From NCBI GenBank assembly GCA_903851135.1, contig CAINNK010000037.1, forward strand, positions 1,320-65,319: 64,000 nt of DNA, written 5' to 3'. The DNA is from an uncultured bacterium (GTDB lineage Bacteria; Patescibacteriota; Minisyncoccia; Moranbacterales; GWC2-37-73). Both the position numbers and the translations under genes were made by a program. Position 1 is the stretch's first letter, and each line of letters starts with the position of its first letter. Below are positions 1-31,715 of this stretch, in pieces. The notes below the pieces were generated by a model. That model was not told the DNA's origin, made no database searches, and worked only from the letters and a program-made list of their open reading frames with translations.

Positions 1-1501
1 TTCTGCGTGGAATCATTCCCTGCTTAGATAAATTACGCTCATCTACCGTAAAAAGAGCTTCTTTGAAAAAATAATATTCCAGCACAAACATGAAACCAAA
101 AAATAAAAATAGCAGCAATAAAATAATTACCAACCAACCTACATAATTAACTAACTGCAAATAAGTCAGCGTGATGCCACCGCCAAGGTTAAGCATCGGC
201 ATATCAACGAAAATAAAGGAACTTTCTCCACTCAAAAGATTGGCTCCGTCAAATAAAGAAACCCTGATTTTATAACTGCCGCTTGGCAGGTTTTCTGGAA
301 CATGCAGGGTTTTTTCCAATTGATTTCCAATTATTCTTTCTGAAACTTGCGAGCTAAAAACAACTGAATTTTTTTTGTTCAAGATTTCATATTTCAAATT
401 GAAAAGATTTTCATTTGAAATGACGGATAATTTATTTCTATCAACTAACAGGATTCTAAATTGCGCATCTTGACCCCTATAAATTCGCCCATTTTCATTT
501 TCAAGTTTCACGACAATTCTTCCAGCTTCAGCCGAGGATTGCAAAGGGTTTTCCTGAGGTTGAACGTTTTGATTGCCGGCATTATGCTTCGGATTACCAG
601 TTGACACGGGGATTAAATTTTCAGTTAAACCCTTAGAGGAACCATGATGTTTGCCGCCGCCTGATTCTTTTGGAGCTGGAGCCGGAGTTGGCGGTGGAGC
701 TGGAGGAACGGGCGGCGTTGACTCACTGATGATTTGAAAAGTATAGTCCTTGGTGATGTTGCGCAGGAAATCACCGGGATCAACGGCGGTAATTTGAAAA
801 TCGTAAGTTCCAACACTAAGTTCATTCGGCAAATAATACTCCCAATAGCCGGTCGCATTGGCCTGCAAGGTAGAAACAAAAACCGGACCCGGCAAAGTTT
901 TGATTTGGATATCCGCATTCGGCATATTTGTGGTACCGGTTATCCTGAAAGTTTTTTTGGTTGTTGAAAGCACATCTCCCAGCAAATATTCCTTTTCATT
1001 AAAAGAAATCAAATCCAAAGTAGGATCCGGTAAAATAATTAGACAATCCCTAGCGGTCACCACCAAAGGATCGGAAACAGTATCTCCGCCGGCACCTGAA
1101 GCTGTCACCACATAGGCATAGTCAGTGCCGCCAATTACATTATTATCAACATAAGCCATGGTCTGAAAGCCGGAAGCCAAAGGAGTGCCGTCTCGAGTTA
1201 TTGCATAAGAGGTGGCACCTTCCGAACCAGTCCAGGCCAAATGCACGGCCGAAACATTACTTGCGCAAGTTTTAGTAGCTGTAATAATCGGTTTACCAGG
1301 AAGACCATCAACGAAAACACTAATCGTTGCCCCAGCTGCCCAGGCATACTTGGCCTTTAAGTCATTTCCGAGCACACTAAACCCACCCAGCGTTCCCAAA
1401 GTCACATAAAAAAGCAGCAAGAAAATAGTAAAAGCCGCATGCAGCCTCATCCAGAAACGCATTTTCAATTTTCGACTTTTTTGCTTTTGCTTTTTTTTCA
1501 T
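1..1501 (-). CDS. partial (3' end runs off window) secreted/membrane-anchored Fn3-domain protein
   Basis: My own reverse-complement translation starts at the ATG at 1501..1499 and reads MKKKQKQKSRKLKMRFWMRLHAAFTIFLLLFYVTLG (signal/TM), then AWTGSEGATSYAITRDG (Fn3-like), a Pro-rich linker PPVPPAPPPTPAPAPK, and a C-terminal hydrophobic segment LVIILLLLFLFFGFMFVLEYYFF. The frame stays open down to position 2. It is absent from the ORF track, presumably because there is no stop codon inside the window. Confidence 0.5.
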   Translation of the reverse strand, partial: MKKKQKQKSRKLKMRFWMRLHAAFTIFLLLFYVTLGTLGGFSVLGNDLKAKYAWAAGATISVFVDGLPGKPIITATKTCASNVSAVHLAWTGSEGATSYAITRDGTPLASGFQTMAYVDNNVIGGTDYAYVVTASGAGGDTVSDPLVVTARDCLIILPDPTLDLISFNEKEYLLGDVLSTTKKTFRITGTTNMPNADIQIKTLPGPVFVSTLQANATGYWEYYLPNELSVGTYDFQITAVDPGDFLRNITKDYTFQIISESTPPVPPAPPPTPAPAPKESGGGKHHGSSKGLTENLIPVSTGNPKHNAGNQNVQPQENPLQSSAEAGRIVVKLENENGRIYRGQDAQFRILLVDRNKLSVISNENLFNLKYEILNKKNSVVFSSQVSERIIGNQLEKTLHVPENLPSGSYKIRVSLFDGANLLSGESSFIFVDMPMLNLGGGITLTYLQLVNYVGWLVIILLLLFLFFGFMFVLEYYFFKEALFTVDERNLSKQGMIPRR

Positions 1502-1568
1502 TTAAATTATCAGCTAAAATTCAACTCCTCTAAAAAAATCTTTTTTAACTTTTTGACATATCCCCTTT

Positions 1569-4500
1569 CTACATATTAGCCCAATGGAAGATTTCTTGGA
1601 AATTATTAATGATAATCTGAATAATATTTTCTTTCTTCTTAGGGGTCAGTAGGGCAAAATCATTAGAAACTCCTTCATTGCCGGCTTCATCAACAGATTT
1701 AACCTTGAAGAAATAAACAGCTCCCGGCTTGAAAACCGTCATAACGGCTAAATGATTTTTAATGTAAGCGTCTCCGATATTTATTTCTCTATCTTCGCCA
1801 TTTTTTCCCTCTCGATAGACGATAGAAGTTGTAGCATTTTCACTAGTGGTCCAAGAAATAATGGACTGCACTTTGTCGTTTTGCGTCAGCGCGCTATCAG
1901 TGTGAATTTGATCAATCACTGGCGGAGTAGTGTCTTTGCCAATCGTAAAATTCGGTCCGACAAGTTCCGAGGCGTTGCCACTTTCATCTTTGGCTTGAAC
2001 TTTCAAAGTGTATTCAGTTCCTGGTGTCAAATTTTTGAGCAAAATGGAATGTGCAATCACCAAATTCGTTTGACCCTGGGAACCGGAATTATTCGGATCG
2101 CCCACTGCCACATAGGCAGCCACTGCATCAGAAGGCACATTGGTTGCAAAGGTTACCGTCGCGCCACTTTCAGTCACGTCACTGACGGCGACATTACTAA
2201 TAACCGGTGGCGACTTTGGTTGAAAAGCATAATCACCTGAAACAAAAACATTACCGGCAGAATCAGTACTTCTGACTCTAAAATGATACATTTGTCCAAT
2301 TGTCAATTTAGTCAGATTAACCTCATGCGCTTTAGTTTGCGAATTACTTTCACTCTTGCTGCCATAGGTATCAGTTAAGCCATATTCAACCAGCGAGGTC
2401 ATGTTTTGAGTTGTCGACCAAGTAACTGCGGCTTCACCTAAAACCTTGGAAATTATACTGATGGAACTTAGCGTTGATTGAGTGGCAGTGGTGAAAGTTG
2501 CCGACGAACTTTCTGCTATATTGCCAGCAGCATCAATAGAAACAACACTATAGTAATATTTAGTCGCCGGCGCCAAGGAGCTGACGGTCACGGTATGAGC
2601 TGTGTCATATTTGGTCTGGTCGATGTTGACCAAATCATTTCCAACCATAAAACCAAAAGTTGATTTTGTTCCATAGCGGACATAGCTGCTAGTTTTCTTG
2701 TCAGTTTTCCAGGTGATGATAACATTTTCGCCAGTGGCTTTTCCAGCGCTGACGCCACTGATGACCGGCAAAGTTTTGTCGGTTCCGCCACTACCGCCTC
2801 CGCCACCAGATTGAATGGTCGTGAAAGAATATTCACTCGAAGTAACCGGAGTGCTAGCTATATTATCTTGACAATTAATCTGGAAGAAATATTTCGTCGT
2901 GCTGATGAGCGAAAGAATTTGCATGCGATGATTTTGATTGAAATCGCTTTCACTTGTCAGTCCTCCAGGATAGGTCTGTCCGTCCAAACGATATTCAATT
3001 ACACATTTAGCCAGTTGATCGGTATTGAAAGTCACACTAGCACTGCCTGAATCCGGAGTTGTCACCACATTGTCGATGGTTTTAAGCGGATCGTGCAAAT
3101 ATTTCGGATCTTTGGCGGTCTTGAAAGTTTTTTCATTGCTGACTGTGGTGATACCATTAGCACCCTTGGTTGAAACTTTATAATTGTAAGTTGTGTCTAA
3201 AGCCAGGTCACTGATAATCAAAGAGTGCCCAGCTCCAATCAAGTCAGCCGGATGATAAATACTACTGTCCAGAGAGTTATCCTTGCTAAAAGCAACTTTA
3301 CTATCACCAACCACATCCGTATCCCAAGTGATGGTAACTTGATTATAGGTAGCAGGCACACCGGCGTCACTGGCCACTACTGCCTGGATATTTGAAATCA
3401 CCGGAGCACCTGCCAAAGAATCGGTTGTAAAACTATTCATGCTGCCATAAGTTACGTTGCCGGAAGTATCTTTGGAAACGACTTGATAGAAATAAGTAGT
3501 AGCACTGGCAAGTCCGGTCACATCAACACTATGACTGGAAGTCGCATCACTAGCGCTGCCAAAAATTTTACTATACTGCGCTGTCTCACCTATATAAATA
3601 ATCGAATCGGTGTTTTCACTAGTGTTCCAACTGATGGTGACACCATTGTCAATAATGTTAGAAGTTGTCAGGTTGGAAATCAGCGGACGAATAAGGTCCG
3701 GGCCAGCACTGGTTGTGAAAGTATAACCAGCGGAAACCCCCTTGTTACCTGAGCCATCCGTAGAATGGACGCGATAATAATATTGATTACTTTGAGCCAA
3801 ATCAGCAGGCAAAACCACACTATGAGAAGTTGTCAGCTCCCCATTGCCGAAGATTTTTCCATAAGCGGTCGTAGTGCCATATTCCACATAGGAATCAGCA
3901 GCGACGTCCGTGGTCCAATTAATAGTGGCGTTATCGTAGGTTATGCCAGTTGCCGTTACAGCGGTGATTTGCGGAACTCCAGGCACTGGCGTAATGTCGG
4001 TTTTGAAATTAAAATCTCCGGAAGTGCCCTTATTTCCTGAACCATCGGTGGAATGCACGCGATAATGATAAGTTGTGTCTGGTGCTAAATCTCCGGGCAA
4101 GTTAATGCTGTGCGCAGTCCCAAGCGTACTGTCGCCGAAAGTTTTTCCATAAGCAGTCGTAGTGCCGTATTCCACATAAGAATCAGCGTTGATATCCGTA
4201 GTCCAATTGACGGTGGCGGTATTGTAGGTCACGCCGGTTGTTGTGACGTTAGTAATTTGAGGCATATTAGGAATCGGATTGGTCAGAGTCAGGAAAGTAT
4301 AGTCACTGGAAGTTCCTTTAGTTCCGGAAACATCCGTAGAATGGACGCGATAATGATAAGTTGTTTCCGGGGCCAAATCAGCCGGCAAGTTAATACTATG
4401 CGATTTAACCAAGGTACTGTTGCCAAAAGTTTTTCCATAGGAAGTTGTGGTGCCATATTCCACATAAGAATCAGCGTTAACATCGGTAGTCCAATTGACC

Positions 4501-7500
4501 GTGGCGGTGCTGTAAGTAACAGCGTCAGAAGAGACAGCTGAAATAATCGGGGCAGCCGGAAGTGGATCAGTCACGAAAGAATATGAACCGGAAACCATTT
4601 CAAACTGAGCCGTGCTGCGAACTCGATAATAATAAGTTGTCTGGGTAGCCAAACCTTGCAAACTAACGGAATGATTTTTAACGTTATCATATTTTCCAAA
4701 GACTTCTGCATTGGAAAAATCACTTTCAGTTGCAAACTCAACAAAAGAAGTTGCATTAATATCCGTGCTCCAGGAAATCGTAAAGGCATTGTAAGCATTT
4801 TTGGTCGCCAATGGTGAGCCTTGCAAAACCGGCGGTTGACCGGAGGAAGTGACAAACGTAAACCCATCCCCTCCATTATCAATGGTCATTATATTGCCAG
4901 ATGCATCAGCAGATTTCAGTTGATAATAATAGGCAGTATCTGGAATTAAGTTAACCAATGTGACTGAATGTAATTGGGTCAGTGGCAAACTTCCCTGTTC
5001 TAATTGAAAATTTCCAAGCGTCGGAGAATAATCAATAAAGGAAGTTGAATCCTCATCAGTCACCCAAGTTATAGTGGCCGAAGTAGCTGAAAAAGCCGTG
5101 ACTATTGGACCAGACACAAGCGTTGGCGCAGTGACATCTTGAGGATCAACATTGGTAGTAAAAGAATAATCAATTGAAACCGCTTCATTATTCGAAGCAT
5201 CCGCAGAATGAACTCGATAGTGATAAGTTGTCTGCGGCACTAAATCTTGAGGCAAAGCAACTGAGTGATTGAAAGGCGGCCCACTCACCAAGGTGCTGTT
5301 GCCGAAAGTTTTTCCATAGGAAGTTGTGGTGCCATATTCCACGTAGGATGTTGCCGTCTCATCCGTGATCCAATCGATGGTAGCGGTGTTGTGGGTCTTT
5401 GAAAAAACTGAAACAGCGCTAATCACTGGCGCAGTTATATCACCCAAGGAACTGGTTTGAAAAGTCTGCTCATCTGAAATAGCCTCATTACCTGAACCGT
5501 CTTTGGAATGCAATTTGTAATAATAAGTTGTGTTAGGACTTAGGAGGCTTGGCAAGGTTATGCTATGAGACAAAGTCAAATCATAAGAACCATAAGAGCT
5601 TCCCACGGAAAATCCCTGACTGACTGAATATTCCACAAATGAAGTAGCGGCTTCGTTGGTTGACCAAGTTATCAAGGTCGAAGTGGTTGTTGGCAAAGAA
5701 GCTATAGCGGAAATTACCGGTGGAACTATGTCGGCAGTAGTCGTAGTGAAACTAAAGCCATTGTGATTACCAGAGACATCAAAATTATCATCCACACTCA
5801 CCCCATTGTTGACCCCGATCGATTTGACTCTGAAATAATAAGTTTGATTTTGAGCAAGCCCAGTAAGAGTCACACTGTGACCCGAAGTCACCAATGTCGC
5901 GTTGCCAACTTCGCTTGAAAAATCACCCGGAGTTGTTGAAAAACCAACCGTGGAGCTAGCTTGCGCATCAGTGTCCCAGGTTATAGTAGCGCTACTGGAA
6001 TTTATTGAAGGAATTGGAACATCTACGTTTGAAATGACAGCCGGCGTGACATTTGCCCCACCTTCCCCATTAGGCATGTCATTGACAATGGCTGAGAAAG
6101 CTGAAATATTCCCATCTGCATCTTCCAAGGTAATCTTATAAGAATAAGTTGCAGCATTGGAAAGTCCTGAGTCAAGATAATAATTAACATTTTTATCCGT
6201 AATGGAATTTACTAAACTGTAACTACTGCCATCTATTGAACGCCAAATGTTATATTTGGCAAAGCCGCCACTACCCATTTCACCCAACACTGGTGCTCGC
6301 CAGGAAATCAACTCGCGATATTCTCCCGTCGTACTGTTAGAAATATCATAAAAGACCACATCGCTAAGTGAAAATGGGGTTGTCTCGACTGCATCAGCAT
6401 AGTTGCCTTTCGCATCTTTGATTCGTAAATGGACAGTTGCAGGATCATTTGTCAAAGCCGAATAATCATAAACACTTTGAAAGGCTTGATAAGTTGCATC
6501 ATGAAAATCACCAAAATTTGAAACAATCATTTGATAGGAAGAGTCATCAATCGGCGAAGTCAGATGCACCTTGTTTGCAGTGTGGTCAATAAAGAAGTTA
6601 ACATTGACCGGATTTTTTGTGTCAAAAACAAAATTGCTTGATTTGCCATAGCCAAGATTGTTGGCACCTTCCGAGTCATTCGCTTTTACTCGAACTTTGA
6701 AATTGCTGCCATTGAAAGCTTGCGGATAATCACTCTTAGCATTCCAAGTCAGTTGATATGATTTCCAATTAACATCTTCCACGGAAATATTAGCTCCTAC
6801 GTCACCATTGACAGTGGCAGCATTAGCCCAAACTTCTGAACCGCTCGCAGCGCAATTAGCGGTGCAATATTGCAAACCAATAATCACTTTTCCCGGAGTA
6901 ACATTTTGCGGAACACTTGAATCAGGATCGCGTACGTCATAATTTACCGTGACCAAGCCATCACTGCCTTGCGAAGCTACGACATTTTGAACTTCCGGTG
7001 GAGCATTGACCACGTATTGCAAAGTAACATCTGACAAAATCGGCGAATTGATTCCATCGGAAATCAGCAGCGCTTGATATTGAATCCATTGATCACCACT
7101 AACATCACTGACTAAACTTGGCATTGCTTGTCCGCCAGTATTATCAGAAAAATAGGTATTCGAAGTACCATCCGGGCCAACCCAACCGGTCCAGGTTCCC
7201 GGATTGCCAGCCTGATCAGGCGCGGTTCTCACTTGAAATTGCACATTCGTACCTGTTGCCAAAGAACGTGACCAACTTACTTTTGAAAGAATATTAGAAG
7301 CATCAGAAGTGTCATAAGCCGAGGAAACAAGGTGTCCCGGAGAAGGAAAATAATTATAATTCAAAGTTATGTCATCAAAAGAAGGCGTCGTGTTAGAATT
7401 AGTAGTAGCCATATTCACCGAATATTGATAGTAGCGCTGTTGACCTAGAGCTGAAATGTCACCACCATTTGAAACATTGGTCAAAGAAATCCAATTTCCA

Positions 7501-10500
7501 TCAACAGTTGGCGTGTTTCCAGCTTTAATATCGACAGTTGCGCTTGTGTTGGCTGGAGTTACAATTGAATAATTAAGCGTGGTGAAGGTTTTAATGCTGC
7601 CAGAATCAATGATAGCAGAATTGAAGGTTCCGCTTGAAAAATAAAAAGTGTGTCCAGCGTTGATTGTGCCACTGGCAGTTCCCCAAACTTGCACTGGAGA
7701 AACTCTTGTTTTATTGTTGTTTTGACCCAACTGTCCATTGCCATTTCCACCCCAAACCCAGACACTGCTGGCATCTGACATGAGAGCAACTGAATGAGCA
7801 TAACCACAAGAAATCATAGAAATACTAGAGGAACCAACGCTACCACCGACTTGCACAGGCGTAATACTATCCACAGTGTTTCCGTTGCCAAGTTGACCAT
7901 AAGCGTTCCAACCCCAAGTCCAAACCGTGCCATCATTTTTAAGGATAATAGAATGATTATTTCCAGCTTTAACCATATTAACATTTGAAGCACCCGCGCC
8001 AGTCACTGGCAAAGCTATCGTTGCTGAATTGCTATTACCAGTTCCCAGCTGTCCATAATCATTCCAACCCCAAGCCAATAAAGAACCATCATTAAGCAGC
8101 GCAAAAGAATGCGCATAACCAGCACTTATTTTTGCAACATTTGTGATTCCGGCAAGACTCGGATCAACAACTTGCACCGGCAAAGATTTATCAATCTTGG
8201 AATAATCTCCAAGCTGACCCTGGTCATTGCTGCCCCAACTCCAAGCGGTTCCATCATACAGTGAAGCTAATGAATAATAACCGCCACCAGAAATTGAACT
8301 CACATTAGTCAAGAAACTACCACCTGTTTTATCTTTAACTTGTTGCGGATAAGGTTGAAAAAAGCCAATACCGCCAATACCTATTTGCCCTTTCCCATTT
8401 CCTCCCCAAGCCCAAACTGTGCCATCACTCCTGAGTGCCAAAGAATGCGTGTCTCCCAAAGAAATCGCAGAAATGTTTTGCAGATAATCTCCGGGAGTTG
8501 AGGAAGCTTTTACTTGCACTGGCAAACTTTGACTCGTTTGCGTGCCGTCGCCCAATTGACCATAAGAGTTCCAACCCCAAGACCAAACCGTGCCATCAGA
8601 TTTCAATGCCAAAGAATGATTATACCCAGCCGCAATGGCAATAACATCGGTCAAACCAACCACTTCAATTGGTGTCAATCTGTTAATATTCGTACCATCT
8701 CCGAGTTGTCCAAAACCGTTTGAACCCCAAGCCCAAACTGTGCCGTCAGATTTCAGGCCTAAATTATGAGCATAACCCGAAGAGATATCTGAGAAACCAC
8801 TGATAATTCCTTGGGCCGATCCCCAGACTTGCACCGGCGTGCTTCGATTGACAACATCATTGACGCCAAGTTTACCGTTGAAATTCCAACCCCAAGTCCA
8901 AACGGTGCCATCCAATTTCAAGGCCACCGAAAAACCTTCCCCACCTGAAACCATCACACTATTGCCACTGCCAAAAGCTTCAACCGGAACCGGGGTTGAC
9001 TTATTTGAAACTGTTCCATCACCTAATTGACTTTTACTGTTGTTTCCCCAAGCCCAAACTGTGCCGTTTGCTCTGATGGCCAAAGAATGATCACTTCCAC
9101 CGCCGATGTAATTAACGTCCGTCAGATTCAACACTTGCACAGGAACATCCGAAGAATTGTTGGTTCCGTCCCCAAGTTCGCCACTGACATTGCTTCCCCA
9201 GGACCAAACGGTCTTGTCTGACTTGAGCACGACCGATCTATTTTTGCCACCATTAATTGAAATAACATTGGAAACTCCTGAAACTTGCAGGGGAATATTA
9301 CTATCCAGCAAAGCTCCATTGCCAAGCTGACCCAAACCGCCATCGCCCCAAGCCCAAACGTTTCCATCTGAAGTCACAGCCATTGTGGTCTTGCTATTGA
9401 TTCCGGAAGTAATCATGGAAACTTGAGCTAGGTTTGAAACTTGCACTGGCAAGTTCGTGTTAACATTGGCTGCATTTCCCAATTGACCTTTGTCATTAGA
9501 GCCCCATGCCCAAACTGTGCCGTCTTTTTTCAGGGCAATTGAATAACCATTGCCGGCTGAAATTGCAATCACATCTGAAAGGGTGCCAGTGCCATTAAAA
9601 TTTTTCACTTTTACTGGAAACAAACTTGAACTGTTAGCTCCGTTGCCAAGTTGGCCCAGGCCGCCATCTCCCCAAGCCCAAACTGTTCCATCAGCGTCAA
9701 GCCCCAAGGAATGATTATCTCCCGCTGCAACTGCCTCGATATTAGAAAGATAATCACTATCAGTTGAATTTCTGATTTGCACTGGTGTTAGACGTGCTGT
9801 TTGCGTGCCATCACCCAATTGTCCACTGTCATTTTGTCCCCAAGCCCAAATCTTATGATTATCACTGATGAGCAACACATGTCCTACTCCAGCCGAAATA
9901 GCTGCAATTCCTCCATAACCCAAATCAACCCGAGCACTGCTACCAGCCGAACGTCCTTTCGTTTGAATATGTTGGCCTGCGTTAAAACCACCACCATTTG
10001 GGGTGTCTTGGGCGCCAGTGTCAGAAGTCTGCACCGAAGAACCAGCCGTCCAATTCAATTCAACATCGTTGCCGGCATTCGTGGTTTTCACGAAAGGATC
10101 TTTGCTCGAATATTCATCCCAACCTCCGACTTTTCCTGGGTGTACATCAGTGTTGTTCGTTTGACCACCTGACCATTTCAATTGTTGCCAAGTGTAGGTC
10201 GCTCCATGCGCATCATGCAAGTTTTGAAAAAAGGCCACCGACACTATCGCCAAAATTAAAAATGAAGAAAAAACTCTTTTGGCAAAAATCGGATTGAAAG
10301 CAAAAGTTTTTTTGGATTTTTTGAAAAATTGCGCAACATTTTGTCCTATTGGATTTTCTTTCTTTTTGCGCGCCGCAAAAGATGGTGCAACTATTTTTCC
10401 AGTGCCAATAGAAAAAGTCACCACCGTTTCCGCTTTCCATTTGCGCATGATTCGCAAAGAAGAAAAAGCAGCAGGCTTGGAATTGGTTTGAATCTTTTTT

Positions 10501-10766: not shown

Positions 10767-10891
10767 GAAGAAACAACGGGGAAACCGCTTGATTTCTTCT
10801 CAAAAAATTTCACTAATCCAATTTATTATCATCGCTCATTTAATAATAAATATTGCTTTTATTATACTATTTTTTTGCAAATCGCGCAAAG

Positions 10892-10920
10892 AAAAAAACG
10901 CACTCGGAGCTTGCGTTTAA
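10892..10920 (-). terminator. hairpin plus T-run downstream of the FG-GAP giant gene (rho-independent terminator candidate)
   Basis: aaacgca-ctcggagct-tgcgttt is a 7-bp stem. On the minus strand it is followed by a T-run. Confidence 0.45.
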
Positions 10921-11130
10921 TTTGGCTTTTTCAAAAAAAATTTCGCTCATTTTTTTCTTCTGCCAAAGTTTTAATTTTGCATTTTTTCAACCTCCCAAAA
11001 AGTCAAAAAACATCGTTTTTACAATCACGAATTCACAATTCTTAAAAACTCAAAAAAATCAATTTTGACAACCTCAAAAACAGCTTGCAACTCAAACTCT
11101 CATCAATTTCTTCAAAATTTGCAACAATTT

Positions 11131-17286: not shown

Positions 17287-17404
17287 TTACTTTTGCGTTT
17301 TTCTAAAAACTTTAAAATTGATTAACACTCTATTTTTAAGCTATTTTTGCTAAACGTATTGGATTTGGATGACGGACTGTTTTGATTTTTTCTTTCATGC
17401 AAGC

Positions 17405-20400
17405 TTACGGACTCGGAACAGTTGTAACAACTGGGAAAGTCAATGATGCCGAGGTGGTAGCTTGCACAATCCACCAATCCACATTGACACCTTCATTTAC
17501 TGATTGATCCACTATAATTTTAAACCCGGTGTAATCGTCTAGGCCACTTTCCATTGTCTTTTCGACCCAACTTGAAGATCCTGGATTTTTCACGAAACTG
17601 GTGAAAATTTTCGAATCCCCACTAACTGCCCTGGTCTTAATTTCCACGCTCTTGCCATCACTGATTGGATTTTTCGTGTTGTCATCAAAACCATCATTGT
17701 TCTCATCAGTTTGAGCTACTGTACATTTATTATTTTTATCAACTTCCAGCAACTTCGGACAAATAATCGCCTGTCCAATCGAAGGCTTGTTAACATCTAC
17801 AATTTTGATAGTCAAGATTCCAGTTTCAACTTCAGCAGCTTCTAATTTTCCGTCAAGCAAATCAAGATTGCCAAGTGAATCTTTGTAAATTATTTTTGTC
17901 GGATCAAGAATTGCAATAAAATCACCAATGGTCTTGTTTTGTTCTTTGATTAAATTGATTTGCGTTTGCAATTGATCAGTAATATTTTTTTCATCAGCAA
18001 TTTGAGCTTGCATGCCAAACATAGTAGTTGCTTGCGCAGTAATTTGGGCATCAAGCGTTGTAAATTTGCCATTAATAATCAACAGATTTGAATCAACTGA
18101 AGTTTGAAGTCCGGAAAGACTTGAAATATCGGTATCAGTTTTAAGGTTAAGTGCCGAAATTTGATTTGAAATAGTATTAATTTGCTGGATATTCTTTTGG
18201 ATTCCAGCTGTAAGCAGCGGTGTAATTGCACCATAGTTGACTACGAAGCGAGCACCAGCTGGACTAATGAAGCCGTCAGCACTTATCTGTTCAGGCATGT
18301 TCGAATCAGGAGCAACAGAAACGAGATAACCGAATCCCTCCTTGATGAGGTCCTGGGCAATAAAACCGGTGTCTAAATTTTGATCAGCAATCCAACGGAA
18401 ATCAACTGGATTAACAGTGTTGAAAAAACTGTCAACTTTGTTGGCATCAATCGGAGTAACATTTTCCTTAAGTCGCTGATCAGAAGTTGCAAGAATGGTA
18501 CTTCCAACAACGGCACCATTCGGAGCATAAACACTGACTGCACGACTAGCTGAAGTAATTATTCCCCAAGTTGTTCCAGTCGAACCATAACCACCGATTG
18601 TAAGGTTGGCACTTGAGGTCACATGTACAGGGACTGTTGGAGCTGTTGTTCCAACGCCAACAAATCCGGAATTAATAATCAAGCCATAATTATTTGTCGC
18701 GCCAGATGCGTTCAAATAAAGACCGACATTGGTCGAAGTGCCCCCGGAATGAGTATTGGAAATTTGAGATCCATATGTGGTAACAGTTCCAGTAATAGTT
18801 CCAGTAGTGAGAATATTTAAAGCGGTTTGTGTCGTTGATGAAGCGACATTTCCCGATACTTGCAAATCAACGAGTTTTCCGGAAGTGAGCGTTGAAGATG
18901 CCGCATAAAGACCTGTTCCTGTGGTAAGTGAATTTGCTGAAAGATTGAGTGCACTCGAAGTGGTCAAACCAGTAGTGTTGCCAGAAACAACCGATAATGT
19001 TCCGCCCGGAGTCACTGTGCCAATACCAATGTTACCTGTGGAATTTATTGAAAGATATGGAGTTGTGCCAACAGTCAAACCAAGACCGATTTTGAAAACT
19101 GAGTCACTTTGGTCAATCCCAGTATAATAATCCTGACTATTGCCATCAAATTGAACAGAAACACTTTGACCAGCTGTTCCACTGCCAACAACAAGGGCCG
19201 ACTCAGCAGTGTTTGAACTCGAAAAAGCAAGATCGCCATTGCTCGCAGAAGCAAGATTGGCATAATGAGAAGCATCATATGACAAACGCAGCGCGTTGCT
19301 TGTGCCAAAAAGAGAAAGCATGGCTGCTGGCGCGGTGGTGCCAAGACCAAGCCGATGATTGGTCGCGTCATAGAAAAAGCCGGAATTGTCTTGAGCCAGT
19401 GCCCCAGCAGTGCCACCAAAATAAACTGAGCCGAGCGTGCCAGAAGTCACCGCGCCGCCAATCGCCATGCCACCGCTGCCACCAAGATTGGCCCATGAGC
19501 CGCCACTGTTTTTATATTGCAGCGTGCCAGCATTGTCATAAATTCCATAACCGCTTGCTCCATTAGTAGAACCAAAATTCAAATAGGAAGAACCAGCCAA
19601 ACTGGCATTTCCCGCATTTATAACTAATCCATAATTCGCAGTAGTTGCACCGGAAGCATTCAAATAAAGTGCCACATTAGTGCCGGAAGTCGCATTGGTG
19701 TGCGTGTTAGAAATCTTAGCGCCATAAGTCGTGATAGCATTGGTTGCATTAGCACCGGTTGTCAAAATGTTAAGAGCAGTCTGGGATGCTGCCGCTGCTG
19801 TGCCAGAAACTTCCAAGTCAGCCAGATAACCACTAGTTAGTGAGGATGAGGCGGCATATAAAGCAGTTCCCGTAGTCAAAGCATTTGCAGTTATATTGGC
19901 CGAAGTCGTTGAAATTTGTTGCGAACCAATGTTATTTGCAAACAAATTACTAAAAGCCAACATACTTGAACCGATTGAACCCCCTGGTGTAAATGAAGGA
20001 CTGATTGTTTTCAGATCTCCATTTGTAACGTCATAATAACTAATTTTGGAATTTCCACTCGAATCAACAGCAATGGACGTGTACTGTCCGGTGTCTCCCG
20101 TTGAATCAATGGTGGCAGTCGAGCTGGAAGAGCAAGCTACGTCACTACACTGAGCAAATTTCAAATCGCCATTAGTAACGTCATAATAACTCATGCGGGC
20201 AATTCCGTCGCTGCCCAAAGCGGCAGCTTGATATTGACCAACATTGCCTGCGGAATCAATCACGTTACCAGTACCAGCACTGGTTGTGTTGCCATGGCTA
20301 TAATTCAAAGTGCCATCAGTAGAATTATAATAAGCAACGTTAAAATTATTACTTGAATCCAAATCAAGAGAAAGATTTTGAAAAATCTCAGCACCGCTAG

Positions 20401-23400
20401 TGTTAATACTACCAGCACTTGATAGCGAAGAACAACTAGCGTTACTGCAAACAAGATACGACATACCGGAATCAGAATAGCTAGCATAAGCAATACGAGC
20501 AAAACCATCAGTGCCTATAGCAACAGCTGTATATTTTCCAGTACCAGCATTTGAATCAACAACAGTGGTGTTCTTGGTTGAACAAGCGGAATTGGTACAT
20601 TGAATGAATTTAGCATTCGTATTAGTCAAATCATAATAGGCAATCCGAGCAAAAGTGTCCGCGGAACTGATAGCAATGGAACTATACTGACCAACATCTC
20701 CAGTTGAATCAAGGGTGGCGATATTCTTGGTTGAACAAGCTGCATTGGTACACTGAACAAATTTGAGATCATGATTAGTAACATCATAATAACTGATGCG
20801 AGCAAAACCATCAGCGCCCATTGCCATGGCCGTGTATTGACCAACATCTCCAGTTGAATCAAGGGTGGCGATATTCTTGGTTGAACAAGCTGCATTGGTA
20901 CACTGAACAAATTTGAGATCATGATTAGTAACATCATAATAACTGATGCGCGAAAAGCCATCACTGCCAATAGCAGTTGAAGTATATTGTCCCACATTGC
21001 CACCAGAATCAACAACAGTACTACTAATAGTGGGAACTGTTGGCATAATGTCTCCACTTACTGAAACCGAACCGGCAACTTGCAATGCTGTCATTGGACT
21101 TGTTGTCCCGATGCCAACATGACCATCATTGCGTACAAACAGACCTGAAGTTCCGGAAGCATTTTTAACATTCAAAGCTGACGCAGAACTGTCTGACGTA
21201 GCGCCCATAATTTCAAGATTTGATCCGGGTGAAGCAGTGCCAATACCAACATTGCCAGCGCTAGTAATGCGTAACCTTTCAGTAAGGGTGTCTGCGGTCG
21301 TATTAGGTGGAATTGCTGAATGATTAATTGAAACCGCCACCGCAGATGCACCTATCGATGCACCGGAATTCCACAAAGTCCAAGATATCGTAGTTGAAGC
21401 TGCGCCATCCTTAACACTACCCGCTCCGCCAAATGTGGAAGTGGGATTCTGAAACCATAAAGCTGTTTGACCAAGACCCCCGGTAAGCGACATGGAAGCT
21501 GAAGACGTCGCTTGGATTACACCAAAAACTTTATTACCTACAGCACTTGAAAGCGTGACAGCATCAATTGAGCCATTGCCACTACCGCTAGCGCTTCCAG
21601 ATGTAGATACCGGGGTTGATTGATCAACATTGTACCAAGATGCCGCCCCACCAACCTTCGCACATGAACTTGCCATCGTAATCGTAATTGTGTCTGTTCC
21701 TGAAGTTGGATTTACCAAATACCAAATTTCAACAACCCCGTTATATCCTCCAGAAGTTCCAAGCTTTGTCAGACTTGCCGCTCCATACGTAACCGACGAA
21801 GCTCCAACCCCACTAGTGCCACCCATAACACCAACAAGCAAAAACCGATTACTATTCGAACCGACGGTATGTGACCATGCTAAAGTTGTGCCAGTGGTGT
21901 TTGAATTGTGACTACTTGCATCAAGAGTAACGACTGGAGTTGTCAAGGGACCAGCCGTTCGAAAAATGAAATCACCGGAACCTGAACTGCCGGTTCCATT
22001 TGAAGCATCAAAAATAAAGTTGCCACCAATAATGTTGCTGCCAGTTGCAGCCGCTCCTCGCAAAGTGAAAGCAGAGGGTGTGGCTCCTTCACCTGTTCCA
22101 AAAATCGTAGAAGTTCCCGCCACATGCAGCGCCGCGGCCGGCGTTGCCGTACCGATTCCAAGACGATTGGTTGAATTATCCCAAAAGAAATTTGCGTTGT
22201 TTTGAGCAAGAACGCCAGAAGTGCCGGCAAAAAGAATGGAACCTTGCGTTGCCGAAGTGATTGCGCCGCCAATTGCCATAGCCCCACCCCCGCCAAGATT
22301 AGCCCAACTGCCACCACTGTTTTTGTATTGCAGCGTGCCGGCATTATCATAGAGTCCATAACCGCCAGTTCCATCAGTGGCTCCGAAATTGATATACGAG
22401 GAAGCTGAAAGGCCGATGTTTCCTGCTACGTCTAATTTATGATTTGGACCAGTAGTCCCGATGCCGACGTAACCATCACGCTCGACCGCCATCGCATAAT
22501 AAGTCGTGTCGGTCAAGCCAACGGGTAAACTTCCAATGCCGACATTCCCAGCATCCGCACCAATATTTGTCACGGTCAATACTCCACCAGACGTGGTTCT
22601 ATTTGCTATATCAACCGCTAAATATATTGTCGAACCATCAGAGGAAATGAACGTTCGAATATTATCCATCGAAGCGTTACTGCTGTAGTGATTTTCATTC
22701 AGGATATTCAGCGACATATTTTCGTCAAATTGAGATCCGTTCACAGCCACTGTGTAGCGGTCGACTCTATTGGAGTCATCAAACGTGATAGTATAAATTC
22801 CACCCAGTCGCGATCCGACGGCAACATAGTATGTACCATCTGCCGAAATAGTGGACTGAACGGAATTTGCCGTCCCAACTCCAGAACTCGAGATAAGCCC
22901 GGCGACGTCCAATAACGATTGTGGGGAACTTGTCCCGATGCCGACATACCCGGTATCCCTGGCGAACGCGAGCATATTCGAGACGGACAAGGAAGAAAAT
23001 CCCAGTGTATTCGCGTTCTCGTCAAATGTAAGGTTGAAATTCTCAACTCCGGAACTATCGGCAAATGAGATAACGTCGGCCGTGCTCCCGTAACCAGCCA
23101 TCACCAAGGATACTGGGGCCGCGCCAGAACCGAGCTGGAGCGTCCCAGTCGGGCTCGTCGTCCCGATGCCGACGCTGCCACCGGCAGCATTAAGCACGAT
23201 ATCTCCATAGGAAGTTCCCTCCGCTTTAATGGATTGAATACCGAGATACCCATTCGTATCAGCACTCGTATAAAAATATCCAGAGGTATGCCCGGTAGCG
23301 TCACTCCCAATTGTAAAATCCGTTGTGCTCCCAGAACTATAAATGCTCAAAGTGCTGCTAGGGCTCGTCGTGCCGATGCCGACATTGCCATTATTCAAAA

Positions 23401-24211
23401 CTGTCAAAGCGGTAGTGCCTCCACTATTGCCGACGTTAAGTTGAATGGCAGGAGAAGTTGCCGTTCCATTGCCGGAAGTGCCCTGCAGTTTCAAAATGTC
23501 TGTGACTCCAGTGCCACCGATGACGGTGCCAGCAGAACCTCCAGCCAGTTGAATGTTTCCAGTGGCACTGACATTGCCTTGCGCATCAACTTTAAATTCC
23601 TGAGTGCCATTTACAGCCAAGCCCAACAGCGTATATCCAGCAGTTGCCGAAGCCGGATTAACATAAACCGTTCCGCCACTGACAGTATTGCCAGTTGGCA
23701 AACCGGCGATATTGATAAAACCATCCCCAATCAAATTATTCGAATTGAAAGCTTGCGGCACGGCGCCAATTCTTTTACGCGAAGTCATTTCAGCGTCAGT
23801 GCCAACGGTGATGCCAAGATAATATGCGTCTTGAGAAAAATCAACGTTCATCGCATTGTCACCAGCCACCGTATCCCCAAGCATAATCGAGAACATTCCG
23901 TTGGTCAGTGTCACCGCTCTGGCAGTTGGCGTACCAACTGTTCCGCGCGCAGTCCAAACCGGTGTGCCACCACTGGCAACAGTATACAAACTTATTTTGA
24001 AATTATAACTTCCATCAGCGACTGAAACGCCAGATCCGTCTGTCAATTTTCCCTGATAATTTATTTGCTTGTTGATGCCGGTTGCAGCTTGAGAAAAACT
24101 GACAAAAAATGCTATTCCAACCAACACAGAAAAAAACAAAGCAACCCATTTTGCTGTGGATTTCTCATTTTTTGGCTTATTTATTTTTATTTTTGGATTT
24201 ATGAGAAACAT
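17405..24211 (-). CDS. giant (2268 aa) secreted tail-fibre/tail-spike-like protein with a peptidase S74 (intramolecular chaperone, self-cleaving) domain near the C-terminus
   Basis: ORF track. The N-terminal signal peptide is AKWVALFFSVLVGIAFFVSFSQA. It has long Gly/Ser/Thr-rich beta-helix-like repeat regions and seven roughly 50-aa blade-like repeats, each with a conserved Cys pair. The C-terminal region reads SDQRLKENVTPIDANKV...DTGFIAQDLIKEGFGYLVSV...VVNYGAITPLLTAGIQ, followed by a coiled coil and a Cys-containing tail. Confidence 0.8.
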   Translation of the reverse strand: MFLINPKIKINKPKNEKSTAKWVALFFSVLVGIAFFVSFSQAATGINKQINYQGKLTDGSGVSVADGSYNFKISLYTVASGGTPVWTARGTVGTPTARAVTLTNGMFSIMLGDTVAGDNAMNVDFSQDAYYLGITVGTDAEMTSRKRIGAVPQAFNSNNLIGDGFINIAGLPTGNTVSGGTVYVNPASATAGYTLLGLAVNGTQEFKVDAQGNVSATGNIQLAGGSAGTVIGGTGVTDILKLQGTSGNGTATSPAIQLNVGNSGGTTALTVLNNGNVGIGTTSPSSTLSIYSSGSTTDFTIGSDATGHTSGYFYTSADTNGYLGIQSIKAEGTSYGDIVLNAAGGSVGIGTTSPTGTLQLGSGAAPVSLVMAGYGSTADVISFADSSGVENFNLTFDENANTLGFSSLSVSNMLAFARDTGYVGIGTSSPQSLLDVAGLISSSGVGTANSVQSTISADGTYYVAVGSRLGGIYTITFDDSNRVDRYTVAVNGSQFDENMSLNILNENHYSSNASMDNIRTFISSDGSTIYLAVDIANRTTSGGVLTVTNIGADAGNVGIGSLPVGLTDTTYYAMAVERDGYVGIGTTGPNHKLDVAGNIGLSASSYINFGATDGTGGYGLYDNAGTLQYKNSGGSWANLGGGGAMAIGGAITSATQGSILFAGTSGVLAQNNANFFWDNSTNRLGIGTATPAAALHVAGTSTIFGTGEGATPSAFTLRGAAATGSNIIGGNFIFDASNGTGSSGSGDFIFRTAGPLTTPVVTLDASSHNSNTTGTTLAWSHTVGSNSNRFLLVGVMGGTSGVGASSVTYGAASLTKLGTSGGYNGVVEIWYLVNPTSGTDTITITMASSCAKVGGAASWYNVDQSTPVSTSGSASGSGNGSIDAVTLSSAVGNKVFGVIQATSSASMSLTGGLGQTALWFQNPTSTFGGAGSVKDGAASTTISWTLWNSGASIGASAVAVSINHSAIPPNTTADTLTERLRITSAGNVGIGTASPGSNLEIMGATSDSSASALNVKNASGTSGLFVRNDGHVGIGTTSPMTALQVAGSVSVSGDIMPTVPTISSTVVDSGGNVGQYTSTAIGSDGFSRISYYDVTNHDLKFVQCTNAACSTKNIATLDSTGDVGQYTAMAMGADGFARISYYDVTNHDLKFVQCTNAACSTKNIATLDSTGDVGQYSSIAISSADTFARIAYYDLTNTNAKFIQCTNSACSTKNTTVVDSNAGTGKYTAVAIGTDGFARIAYASYSDSGMSYLVCSNASCSSLSSAGSINTSGAEIFQNLSLDLDSSNNFNVAYYNSTDGTLNYSHGNTTSAGTGNVIDSAGNVGQYQAAALGSDGIARMSYYDVTNGDLKFAQCSDVACSSSSTATIDSTGDTGQYTSIAVDSSGNSKISYYDVTNGDLKTISPSFTPGGSIGSSMLAFSNLFANNIGSQQISTTSANITANALTTGTALYAASSSLTSGYLADLEVSGTAAAASQTALNILTTGANATNAITTYGAKISNTHTNATSGTNVALYLNASGATTANYGLVINAGNASLAGSSYLNFGSTNGASGYGIYDNAGTLQYKNSGGSWANLGGSGGMAIGGAVTSGTLGSVYFGGTAGALAQDNSGFFYDATNHRLGLGTTAPAAMLSLFGTSNALRLSYDASHYANLASASNGDLAFSSSNTAESALVVGSGTAGQSVSVQFDGNSQDYYTGIDQSDSVFKIGLGLTVGTTPYLSINSTGNIGIGTVTPGGTLSVVSGNTTGLTTSSALNLSANSLTTGTGLYAASSTLTSGKLVDLQVSGNVASSTTQTALNILTTGTITGTVTTYGSQISNTHSGGTSTNVGLYLNASGATNNYGLIINSGFVGVGTTAPTVPVHVTSSANLTIGGYGSTGTTWGIITSASRAVSVYAPNGAVVGSTILATSDQRLKENVTPIDANKVDSFFNTVNPVDFRWIADQNLDTGFIAQDLIKEGFGYLVSVAPDSNMPEQISADGFISPAGARFVVNYGAITPLLTAGIQKNIQQINTISNQISALNLKTDTDISSLSGLQTSVDSNLLIINGKFTTLDAQITAQATTMFGMQAQIADEKNITDQLQTQINLIKEQNKTIGDFIAILDPTKIIYKDSLGNLDLLDGKLEAAEVETGILTIKIVDVNKPSIGQAIICPKLLEVDKNNKCTVAQTDENNDGFDDNTKNPISDGKSVEIKTRAVSGDSKIFTSFVKNPGSSSWVEKTMESGLDDYTGFKIIVDQSVNEGVNVDWWIVQATTSASLTFPVVTTVPSP
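17408..18488 (-). other. peptidase S74 / C-terminal intramolecular chaperone domain region inside the 2268-aa gene, plus a downstream coiled coil and Cys-containing tail
   Basis: SDxRLKEN, GFIAQD and NYgAItPLLtaaIQ are hallmark motifs of the endosialidase/tail-spike chaperone domain. The serine of SDQRLK is encoded at about nt 18485. Confidence 0.7.
20541..20990 (-). repeat. intragenic 150-bp (50-aa) tandem repeats, with two copies identical over about 110 bp
   Basis: 20691-20840 and 20841-20990 begin with identical sequence (ccaacatctccagttgaatcaagggtggcgatattcttggttgaacaagctgcattggtacactgaacaaatttgagatcatgattagtaacatcataataactgatgcg). A more diverged copy sits at 20541-20690, and further diverged copies lie between 19980 and 20540. 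Confidence 0.85.
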
Positions 24212-24318
24212 TTTTGTGAGTCTTTTTTTATCTTTCTTTTTTTGAATAAAAACTACCTAAAAAAGACGCACGCTCCCTACCCAGAAATTATATTTCTTCA
24301 TAGGGAAATTATAGCACA

Positions 24319-24348
24319 AAAAGAGCATTTTTTAAATGCTCTTTTAAA
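24319..24348. terminator. bidirectional hairpin between the small secreted-protein gene and the giant gene
   Basis: aagagcatt-ttttaa-aatgctctt is a perfect stem, flanked by A/T runs. Confidence 0.4.
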
Positions 24349-24436
24349 AGTTATCCACAGGTTTTTTCCGCTCAAACAAAGCAAAAAAATAATCAGTTGC
24401 AATTTTCAGGGTCCAAGACTTGAAAATCCGAAAAAA

Positions 24437-25150
24437 CTAGAGTTTTGCGATTGCTGTATAGCTCAAAATGTTCGTGTAATTTCCAGCTTTTTGCGAAGAA
24501 GGAACATCCAATTTGTAGCCAACCACTGTGCTGTCAATTCCACTCGAATATCCATTCTTGGTGTGAAACAAAGTTGAAGTGGTTGGAATGGCAGCATATT
24601 TGTAACTTGGATTCGTTCCCCACTTAGCTTCAACTGCCGTACCAGAACTCACCGTGAATCCAAAACCAGTTCCTGACCAAAAGCAAGGCGAGGCTATCGC
24701 GCAAGAATATGCTCCTATCGTCGTCACAGCGTCAGTGTGTTTCAAATTATTATTTTCTGAGATATAAAGGTCATAACCGCCCCAAGCATCGGTTGTGACT
24801 GAAGCCGTGGTGGTTGCCGTTATCGGCGTTCCGGAAGTCACCGAACCAAGATTTTTTGTGCTCGAATCCAAAAACAAACTCAAACCATACGTGGTCATAG
24901 GAGCCAACCCTTCTCCGATTGCAAAATTAGTGCTGGCCATGTTCCCAATGAAGGCTTCACCAATCGAATCAAAAGTTTTGTAGTTGGTGGAAGTGCTGAG
25001 ATTTCCGCCCGAGTTTATCGAGTCGGCGTTGATCTGATAATTCGCGCTAGACATTGCCAGCGCGGAAAGCGCGTAAAAACCGAACAAAAAAATAACAAGT
25101 AGTAGAATTATTTTTTTCATCTGTTTTGTAAAATAAGTTTCAAATATCAA
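24437..25150 (-). CDS. small secreted Thr/Ser-rich protein (237 aa) of unknown function
   Basis: ORF track. The N-terminal signal peptide is MKKIILLLVIFLFGFYALSALA. It sits immediately upstream of, and co-oriented with, the giant protein genes. Confidence 0.55.
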   Translation of the reverse strand: MIFETYFTKQMKKIILLLVIFLFGFYALSALAMSSANYQINADSINSGGNLSTSTNYKTFDSIGEAFIGNMASTNFAIGEGLAPMTTYGLSLFLDSSTKNLGSVTSGTPITATTTASVTTDAWGGYDLYISENNNLKHTDAVTTIGAYSCAIASPCFWSGTGFGFTVSSGTAVEAKWGTNPSYKYAAIPTTSTLFHTKNGYSSGIDSTVVGYKLDVPSSQKAGNYTNILSYTAIAKL

Positions 25151-25671: not shown

Positions 25672-27795
<2,124 letters not shown>

Positions 27796-28599: not shown

Positions 28600-28675
28600 G
28601 GCAGGGTAGCTCAGTTGGTTAGAGCACAGCCTTCATAAGGCTGGGGTCGCGAGTCCGAGTCTCGCCCCTGCTACG
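28600..28675 (+). tRNA. tRNA with CAT anticodon (elongator Met or Ile2/lysidine type)
   Basis: It begins ggcagggtagctcagttggttagagc. The anticodon stem is cagcc/ggctg with loop ttCATaa, the T-arm is gcgag-tccgagt-ctcgc, and the acceptor 3' strand is ccctgct. Confidence 0.8.
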
Positions 28676-29373: not shown

Positions 29374-29389
29374 TAAAATGGACTGGTAG

Positions 29390-29466
29390 CTCAGTTGGTT
29401 AGAGCACCGCCCTGTCACGGCGGGGGTCGAGGGTTCGAGTCCCTTCCAGTCCGCATAGATAAAAAA
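29390..29466 (+). tRNA. tRNA-Asp (anticodon GTC)
   Basis: The acceptor is ggactgg/ccagtcc with discriminator G. The anticodon stem is cgccc/gggcg-like with loop ctGTCac. The T-arm is gaggg-ttcgagt-ccctt. Confidence 0.85.
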
Positions 29467-31488: not shown

Positions 31489-31715
31489 AGTTTGATATTT
31501 ATTTTATTATTTAAATCAGGCTAAGCACCAATTTTATATTTTGCGGAATTGAGCGTACTTTATGGTTTAAATTTTTACGAGCTTGTTTGCTTTTTAGACC
31601 ACTGCAAGCGATTAGCTATAATTCCTAGCCAAAGGAACGCGCCCTAAAAAGGAAACGAGCGAAGTAAAAATTTCTAACTTAGTTTCTGAGAACCAAAATG
31701 TTTCATATTCCAAAC

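Follow-up and report, generated by a model that had tools for sequence, protein, structure and literature searches.

Giant surface proteins made of repeats in a candidate Pam-like, WxLIP-containing gene cluster of a Moranbacteria-like Patescibacterium

Genes and domains of the cluster

Positions 1-25150 of the window, as we call the whole 64-kb stretch of DNA analysed here (contig CAINNK010000037.1), hold five co-oriented open reading frames (ORFs) on the minus strand that sum to ~24.4 kb, or 38% of the window. They encode a small secreted protein, three giants (a tail-fibre-like protein with an S74 domain, an FG-GAP repeat protein and an RCC1/Fn3 repeat protein) and a fifth, medium-sized protein (Table 1). 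A first-pass annotation, made from the sequence alone, had described these five consecutive genes correctly, with a share of 36%. The continuation was read on the source contig (ena:ERZ27313161:k141_38270), where the cluster extends 4.5 kb beyond the window start and is followed by unrelated genes. Downstream of the fifth gene, in the same orientation and separated by -4 to 148 bp, come the genes of a 101-aa membrane protein, of three tandem paralogues (215, 213 and 218 aa) and of two proteins of 327 and 307 aa. All 12 genes of the cluster are co-oriented, and genes of pilus type flank the giants on both sides. Because the giants are sited inside a cluster that resembles the Pam pilus system of bacteria of the candidate phyla radiation (CPR), they are probably components of an apparatus for host contact and not adhesins that act alone.

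Each of the five window proteins has a single N-terminal hydrophobic segment in a hydrophobicity scan, to which the fifth adds a C-terminal one. This agrees with the signal peptides or N-terminal anchors that had been assigned to all five and, together with the domain calls, supports the extracellular location proposed for them. The Pfam search that had been suggested for each protein recovered all of the S74, FG-GAP, RCC1 and Fn3/PAP-N families. Apart from the putatively self-cleaving S74 module, no enzyme domain was found in the five proteins by Pfam, NCBIfam or PHROGs, as the first-pass annotation had also held. Identical giant genes are present on several independently assembled contigs and are therefore not an assembly artefact.

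The small protein, whose true start is probably M11, comprises 227 aa. Its signal peptide precedes a ~55-aa segment, in which the motif S-x-N-Y occurs three times, and a domain of ~150 aa. This domain is an immunoglobulin (Ig)-like beta-sandwich that ends in G-x-Y-x-N-x-x-T-Y-T-A. AlphaFold2 predicted it as a confident beta-sandwich and the N-terminal segment as disordered; the best structural matches of the model are CsuA/B, CfaB, the FimH pilin domain, CupE, TasA and TLP-1b, and PDB sequence searches with profiles of the small proteins gave no match. The sole NCBIfam match is NF058579, 'CPR-type pilus protein PamT' (E = 4.7e-14). What had been listed simply as a small secreted protein is indeed secreted, and the PamT match and the fold now make it a pilin-like Ig-fold subunit of the cluster. 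The same C-terminal Ig domain is carried by the three ~215-aa paralogues (E = 1e-9 to 1e-10 against the window protein in BLAST, about 1e-48 with hidden Markov models (HMMs)). Relatives match NF058581 (Pam_pilin_C) along the whole model, with E-values of 3.3e-6 and 0.0039 and scores under its 55-bit cut-off. When 34 diverse family members were compared with NCBIfam, 13 matched PamT, 10 matched Pam_pilin_C ('Pam pilus system pilin subunit') and none matched any other family. Since the scores lie far under the curated cut-offs, the relation to Pam is one of distant homology and not of orthology.

The 327- and 307-aa proteins consist of a signal peptide, a WxLIP-type two-domain body and a C-terminal transmembrane helix. 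A profile of both with their orthologues matched EfmWxLIP1 (E. faecium WxLIP1) in PDB across both Ig-like domains (E = 6.4e-9). Comparison with seven Firmicutes plasmid WxLIPs by hhalign gave a probability of 98.6% (E = 1.2e-15) over 295 columns including the transmembrane helix, and orthologues in relatives exceed the Pfam cut-off of PF06030 (WxLIP_PGBD). These alignments identify the two proteins as true full-length homologues of Firmicutes WxLIP, which has been proposed to stabilise small WxL proteins via an inserted beta-hairpin (Hassan 2023, PMC10599100).

A profile search with the small proteins yielded a family of 3788 representatives. Their domain is also found at the C-terminus of larger adhesin-like proteins bearing DUF2341/LamG or cadherin-like modules, a layout similar to that of FimH-type two-domain tip adhesins. 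One predicted protein from the same search (P0109, 546 aa) combines a WxLIP_PGBD-like N-terminus with a pilin-like domain at its C-terminus, and is either a natural chaperone-subunit fusion or the product of merged gene calls. Given their WxLIP neighbours and a G-x-Y-T-x-T motif at the C-terminus, the small proteins were first considered as WxL domains. This assignment was rejected: they have no match to PF13731 in Pfam at E<=1, the family reached only 1.65% in hhalign against an alignment of seven plasmid WxL proteins, and the W-x-L motif is absent from them.

In the tail-fibre-like protein, Pfam placed Peptidase_S74 (PF13884) at aa 1910-1957 (E = 1.8e-9; 38.2 bits against a cut-off of 22 bits), which bears out the earlier description of a 2268-aa tail-fibre-like protein with an S74 chaperone domain. 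The domain starts with an S-D-x-R-x-K motif (S1910-D-Q-R-L-K1915) followed by G-F-I-A-Q; the spacing of its Ser1910/Lys1915 dyad presumably resembles that of endosialidase. The PHROG match to 'tail fiber protein' covers aa 1906-2024 only, and the full protein had no match among PDB sequences. Close to the N-terminus, the sequence ...FVSFSQA/ATG looks like a cleavable site. The first ~220 aa contain a module present in 62 of 114 homologous giants, always N-terminal and 40-79% identical, while the middles of these proteins differ. The body of the window fibre carries blade-like repeats with the motif G-Q-Y-T-S-I-A...Y-Y-D-x-T-N-x-D-L-K...C as well as G-N-V-G-I-G-T repeats of fibre type, and its C-terminal domain is homologous to those of many of the homologues. 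The 385 homologues are mostly 'tail fiber domain-containing proteins' of 1300-4000 aa from Patescibacteria with mosaic middles, some of which pair FG-GAP, LamG or LVIVD modules with S74. A constant attachment end joined to a variable binding body follows the logic of phage tail fibres. Some of the giant homologues carry HTH_17 (PF12728). A public variant of the fibre (P0241, 2218 aa, three contigs) is identical except for the clean loss of one 50-aa repeat (aa 1088-1137, positions 20800-20949), due either to copy-number variation or to assembly collapse.

The family assignment of the FG-GAP protein was upheld by Pfam (E = 3.5e-260), and the repeat count was not: about 36 repeats had been claimed for this 2051-aa protein, and there are 28, each a Pfam stretch, at ~60-aa spacing. 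The expression G-[DN]-[FL]-N-x-[DN]-[GS]-x-x-D-L matches 28/28 repeats with spacings of 50-74 aa, and Tandem Repeats Finder (TRF) gave periods of 177-192 nt at 70-78% identity for the region. Every repeat has a Ca-binding D-x-N-x-D-G-x-x-D loop. The repeats are predicted to form four 7-bladed propellers.

The RCC1 giant was matched by RCC1 and the RCC1-like domain (WD40_RLD) with E-values from 1e-152 to 3.9e-238. Both the 14 RCC1 stretches and the 14 W-G-x-N-x-x-G-Q-L-G motifs, spaced 48-59 aa apart, are consistent with 14 blades, predicted to form two seven-bladed propellers. The second half of the protein matched Pur_ac_phosph_N in 14 stretches (E = 2e-91) and fn3 (E = 5e-32), and contains about 15 modules of PAP-N type and one classical Fn3, about 16 in total. 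The families had thus been named correctly, with counts (~20 blades and ~14 Fn3/PAP-N modules) that require correction. Ahead of the sole transmembrane segment, the ORF has ~130-160 very basic codons (10290-10766). Public gene calls use starts at 10730 and 10673, and there is no spacer between the ATG at 10673 and the perfect AAGGAGG that abuts it.

No similarity outside the repeats was detected among the giants or between the giants and the set of S74 homologues, and the three giants together contain about 1,900 aa that Pfam assigns to no family, among them aa 220-1030 of the S74 fibre, aa 52-340 of the FG-GAP protein and aa 1051-1470 of the RCC1 protein. The present lineage is the only one in which the FG-GAP and RCC1 giants were seen. 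Between the N-terminal hydrophobic segment of the fifth protein and its C-terminal transmembrane segment (62-169) lie three beta-rich blocks of Ig/Fn3-like type with a Pro/Thr linker, and a basic tail comes last. The earlier reading as an Fn3 protein with a C-terminal hydrophobic anchor holds for the anchor (aa 445-480). Fn3 was not recovered at the Pfam threshold; the matches are weak ones to Big_13/MG2 in Pfam and to an 'Fn3-like protein' in PDB (E = 0.004). AlphaFold2 run without an alignment gave an all-beta model of low confidence (predicted local distance difference test (pLDDT) 49).

Table 1. Coordinates of the cluster genes and their parts in the window
Feature	Position	Strand	Basis or remark
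Small secreted PamT-like gene	24437-25150; 24437..25120 from M11	-	Maximal ORF 237 aa; 227 aa from M11
S74 tail-fibre-like gene, 2268 aa	17405..24211	-	ORF, Pfam PF13884
Fibre: signal peptide or anchor, aa 19-43	24083..24157	-	Hydrophobicity scan, sequence inspection
Fibre: conserved N-terminal module, aa ~44-220, starts INYQGKLT	23552..24082	-	Homologue comparison
Fibre: about eight 50-aa blade-like repeats	19892..21124	-	TRF period 150 nt, 82-87% identity; motif scan
Fibre: S74 intramolecular chaperone core (predicted)	18341..18484	-	Pfam; Ser1910-Asp-Gln-Arg-Leu-Lys1915 motif
Fibre: coiled-coil-like stretch and conserved ~170-aa C-terminal domain past the S74 site	17408..18340	-	
FG-GAP gene, 2051 aa	11131..17286	-	ORF, Pfam FG-GAP
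FG-GAP protein: N-terminal signal-anchor, aa 18-51	17134-17235	-	
FG-GAP protein: repeats, aa ~340-2030, after a ~290-aa region with no family match	11197-16269	-	
RCC1/Fn3 gene	1569-10766; 1569..10730 from 10730	-	Maximal ORF 3065 aa; ~3053 aa from 10730
RCC1 protein: single transmembrane segment after basic N-terminal tail	10218-10289	-	
RCC1 protein: 14 blades (two predicted propellers)	7617-9899	-	Pfam, motif count
RCC1 protein: ~420 aa of beta-rich modules with no family match	6357-7616	-	
RCC1 protein: ~16 Fn3/PAP-N-like modules	1737-6356	-	Short amphipathic tail last
Fifth gene	1..1501	-	Leaves the window; 505 aa on the source contig, last 5 codons outside

Synteny and comparison with known systems

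The host had been taken for a small-genome bacterium, which fits GyrB (gene at 25672-27762): it is 76-92% identical to that of metagenome-assembled genomes (MAGs) labelled Candidatus Moranbacteria or Moraniibacteriota, and the organism is a Moranbacteria-like Patescibacterium. Moranbacteria are part of the Parcubacteria group of Patescibacteria.

Two gene orders were found among relatives. The gyrB-linked order of the window, gyrB - small gene - giant fibre, recurs in three loci (L092, L094 and L010); in the window and in L092, the gene directly downstream of the PamT-like one encodes the S74 fibre. In the compact order (L085, L087, L089 and L093), a homologue of the small gene is followed first by one or more ~210-aa paralogues and two WxLIP-like genes, then by one or two further small genes and last by the gene of a single large protein (1053-2430 aa). 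The protein from L093 carries S74. That of L087 (1053 aa) is homologous to the N-terminus, repeats and C-terminal domain of the window fibre (E = 1.7e-22), and that of L089 has the N-terminal module in common with it. At least four independent loci, with two gene orders between them, link an S74-type fibre to the small-gene/WxLIP cluster, and in operons of this type it is the S74 protein that is conserved as the large partner. Giant mosaic CPR 'tail fibre' proteins are genetically tied to Pam-like/WxLIP machinery. The compact clusters of relatives lack the FG-GAP and RCC1 giants, and MAGs with 83-87% identical GyrB have ordinary genes and none of the cluster downstream of gyrB. Because the giants are missing downstream of gyrB in most relatives, we regard the locus as accessory and not as core. 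Directly upstream of the big fibre gene, L087 (14235-14660) and L093 (12960-13397) encode a ~141-145-aa protein that has no signal peptide and by eye resembles a helix-turn-helix (HTH) protein.

One of the closest known systems is the CPR Pam pilus of Ca. Mycosynbacter amalyticus, from which the PamT and Pam_pilin_C models derive (Troman et al., bioRxiv 10.64898/2026.03.03.709456). According to that preprint, Ig-fold pilins are joined by donor-strand exchange. PamT is a single-domain tip pilin, and the two-domain pilins consist of a nine-strand N-terminal domain, a donor linker strand and a domain at the C-terminus. PamC and PamD are PapD-like chaperones with two beta-sandwich domains and a C-terminal transmembrane helix, PamR is an RbmA-like FnIII membrane anchor, and a protein that resembles tail fibres is consistently co-localised with pam operons. 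The locus resembles Pam in its CPR host, in predicted Sec-exported Ig-fold subunits that weakly match PamT and Pam_pilin_C, in two chaperone-like proteins of like architecture (two predicted beta-sandwiches and a C-terminal transmembrane helix), in a putative tandem Ig/Fn3 protein whose transmembrane segment is C-terminal, and in a co-localised tail-fibre-like protein. It differs in its single-domain subunits of ~190 aa when mature, in the lack of a PamA/B/E pilin, and in the three giants (7.3 k aa) inside the operon. The host also differs: the reports in the preprint concern mainly Saccharimonadia and Microgenomatia, with no mention of the Moranbacteria/Parcubacteria lineage to which the present locus belongs. 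WxL is not mentioned there either.

The WxL/Csc clusters of Firmicutes (Siezen 2006, PMC1534035; Hassan 2023, PMC10599100) also have full-length WxLIP homologues (DUF916-DUF3324-TM), several ~200-aa secreted partners and a large surface protein; moreover, the small domain of the wider CPR family, like the WxL domain, is also found C-terminally on large proteins. Hassan et al. define a WxL cluster partly by a full WxLIP (PGBD, HBD and transmembrane helix), and such genes lie just beyond the window. They also define it by at least two WxL proteins (dual Trp-x-Leu) within four genes, and none are present here. In contrast to the Firmicutes clusters, the small proteins are not WxL by Pfam, hhalign or motif, and the giants are N-terminally anchored and have no C-terminal small domain. 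A C-terminal sortase-type signal and a CscD-type LPXTG partner are absent from the cluster proteins. Because WxLIP homologues are present but the small proteins are not WxL domains, the element common to the Pam-like and WxL systems is the membrane-anchored two-domain protein.

In predicted fold, including the disordered N-terminal extension, the small protein is also like the donor-strand fibres of chaperone-usher, TasA and archaeal bundling pili. The fibre resembles phage tail fibres and endosialidases in its S74 core with a Ser-x4-Lys motif, its conserved N-terminus and its mosaic body, but it is encoded by a cellular gene, has a signal peptide and has no virion genes nearby. The first-pass annotation had compared the propellers and Fn3 arrays with eukaryotic adhesion systems. 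The folds are shared: integrin-alpha FG-GAP and RCC1 propellers have the same repeat families, multiples of seven blades and, in the FG-GAP repeats, the Ca-binding loop, and giant bacterial Fn3/Ig adhesins are also among the closest known proteins. The likeness is confined to folds and is no homology of systems. The chains here have four and two tandem propellers, no integrin beta partner and no guanine nucleotide exchange factor context. Experiments on the cultivated Saccharibacterium Southlakia epibionticum offer a precedent for the function: its adjacent envelope proteins with VCBS (FG-GAP-like) and Fn3 domains are essential for epibiotic growth.

A candidate filament operon and its alternatives

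On balance, we favour, with moderate confidence, the interpretation that the cluster is a divergent Pam-like, WxLIP-containing strand-complementation filament operon that has been expanded by giant repeat proteins. As part of this interpretation, it seems fairly probable that the whole is one co-oriented 12-gene cell-surface operon of roughly 30 kb, of which the window holds the first 25 kb. We are similarly inclined to see a divergent Pam core in the fifth protein, the four small subunits and the two WxLIP homologues. All cluster products would be Sec-exported. The small subunits, with Ig folds that would be incomplete, would be held by the anchored WxLIP/PamCD-like proteins through strand complementation, and would polymerise by the same means into a thin filament. 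The one indirect sign of donor-strand exchange is the N-terminal extension that the monomer model leaves disordered. The fifth protein, judging from its architecture and model a possible PamR-like membrane anchor, may tether this filament. The S74 fibre probably trimerises under its C-terminal intramolecular chaperone, as phage tail fibres do, and the chaperone would cleave itself at Ser1910. The constant N-terminal module of the fibre may dock to a conserved surface partner, leaving its variable body and the two propeller giants to contact the host cell. The FG-GAP and RCC1 giants would have been inserted beside the fibre in this lineage as N-anchored, enzyme-free binding modules with Ca loops. 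Gene content, domains, homologies and synteny are what the sequences show; the filament, the trimer and its cleavage, the docking and the adhesion to a host are inferred. The first-pass proposal of an adhesin or host-attachment surface layer is thus a sensible reading of the giants, though an incomplete one.

Several observations weigh against this interpretation. The PamT score of the small protein is 52 bits, compared with an equivalog cut-off of 240 bits, and the best Pam_pilin_C score for one paralogue is 27 bits against 55. A two-domain pilin of PamA/PamB/PamE type is absent from the 12 genes, all four subunits being of 213-227 aa with a single Ig domain, and the case for equating the 327- and 307-aa proteins with PamC and PamD is one of architecture only. 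For the fifth protein, V. cholerae RbmA is the top Foldseek match (E = 2e-6), obtained from the model of pLDDT 49 and with a TM-score of 0.2-0.34. An ATP synthase neighbourhood is absent from the 64-kb window and from 8 kb beyond it, and scans for promoters and terminators, which bear on transcription as a single operon, were at chance level. HMMs of the pilin-like domain do not match the giants. Since the giants have no pilin-like domain and have their own N-terminal anchors, any physical link between them and the filament is hypothetical. The RCC1 giant has its propellers near the anchor and its Fn3 array at the far end, an odd topology for an adhesin of head-on-stalk design. Classical S74 chaperone domains comprise about 150 aa after the cleavage Ser; the 359 aa downstream of the predicted cleavage site Ser1910 in the fibre are longer than this.

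Some of these points would be expected if the giants were independent anchored adhesins or surface-coat proteins that occupy a permissive, variable spot downstream of gyrB and have no connection with the small genes. Their own anchors, the lack of a pilin-like domain, the gaps of 118-400 bp that separate the giant genes, the compact clusters of relatives that lack the FG-GAP and RCC1 giants and the ordinary genes found at this place beside gyrB of 83-87% identity all speak for such an arrangement. We nevertheless consider it rather unlikely: the S74-type fibre is tied to the small-gene/WxLIP cluster in at least four loci and two orders, the Pam preprint reports an equal association of a tail-fibre-like protein with its operons (10.64898/2026.03.03.709456), and the 12 genes are co-oriented with pilus-type genes on either side of the giants. 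A surface complex of the Firmicutes WxL type, in which no filament is made, WxLIP holds the small subunits on peptidoglycan and the large proteins bind host or substrate, would account for the strong full-length WxLIP homology and for a layout (small protein or proteins, WxLIP, large surface protein) that is like that of plasmid WxL clusters and in part matches a published definition. The small proteins, however, match Pam pilin models and not WxL (no PF13731 at E<=1, 1.65% in hhalign, no W-x-L), neither an LPXTG partner nor a sortase-type signal is present, and the giants lack a C-terminal small domain, which makes this explanation improbable.

We give very little credence to a degradative or predatory apparatus in which cryptic enzymes, for example depolymerases, attack the host envelope. 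S74 chaperones often come after glycosidase or lyase beta-helices, and the ~1,900 unassigned aa of the three giants would leave space for such enzymes; against this, the unassigned parts resemble beta-sandwich or propeller repeats, and searches of Pfam, NCBIfam, PHROGs and PDB sequences found no catalytic family. A prophage or tailocin remnant, with the S74 protein as a phage tail fibre, seems scarcely credible. The S74 domain and the PHROG 'tail fiber protein' match would fit, but the latter is limited to aa 1906-2024, the neighbours (gyrB, tRNAs, GH130, gatA and ligA) include no further gene of phage type, and the protein has an N-terminal signal peptide and hundreds of cellular Patescibacteria homologues with the same N-terminal module.

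Bacteria of the CPR are thought to live attached to other microbes, and few attachment structures are known in them beyond type IV pili and Pam, described in 2026. As a candidate filament operon, the locus suggests that a simplified, single-domain Pam-like machinery exists in the Moranbacteria/Parcubacteria lineage. More tentatively, and with some doubt, it could be a Parcubacteria-type Pam relative in which strand-donating chaperones homologous to WxLIP assemble single-domain pilins and the giants, with the S74 fibre docked by its constant N-terminal module, are interchangeable host-recognition cargo. If so, CPR Pam pili and Firmicutes WxL clusters would represent two branches of a single ancient system in which chaperones assemble surface structures with no usher, with the mosaic giant CPR 'tail fibre' proteins as its specificity determinants. 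We found no paper connecting WxL with Patescibacteria. The proposal offers testable hypotheses on how host specificity is encoded and exchanged, and a functional handle on the WxL clusters of lactic acid bacteria and enterococci.

Neighbouring genes

Beyond the locus, the window contains gyrB, a tRNA cluster with a LAGLIDADG ORF, two GH130 genes, gatA and ligA. The first-pass annotation had placed a type IV pilus locus next door to the giants. A complete locus is present at 38.6-49.8 kb of the window, but it is not adjacent, being 13 kb away behind gyrB, GH130, gatA and ligA. The informative context of the giants is the Pam-like/WxLIP-containing candidate filament operon that embeds them, and not the type IV pilus locus.

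The tandem GH130 genes (mannoside phosphorylase-type, 29596-33545, minus strand) each encode an N-terminal extension of ~280-320 aa with no Pfam match, and an 851-aa Mur-ligase-domain protein (51620-54175, minus strand) has a ~530-aa N-terminal region, likewise with no Pfam match. The free-standing LAGLIDADG_3 ORF (28684-29373, plus strand; Pfam E = 1.8e-15) is 79% identical to its counterpart in the relative L010 and sits exactly between tRNA-Met (28600-28674) and tRNA-Asp (29380-29454). In L010, the closest relative, the gyrB ORF (9974-13372) encodes 1133 aa as compared with 696 aa in the window; it probably contains an intein, and the window gyrB is intein-free.

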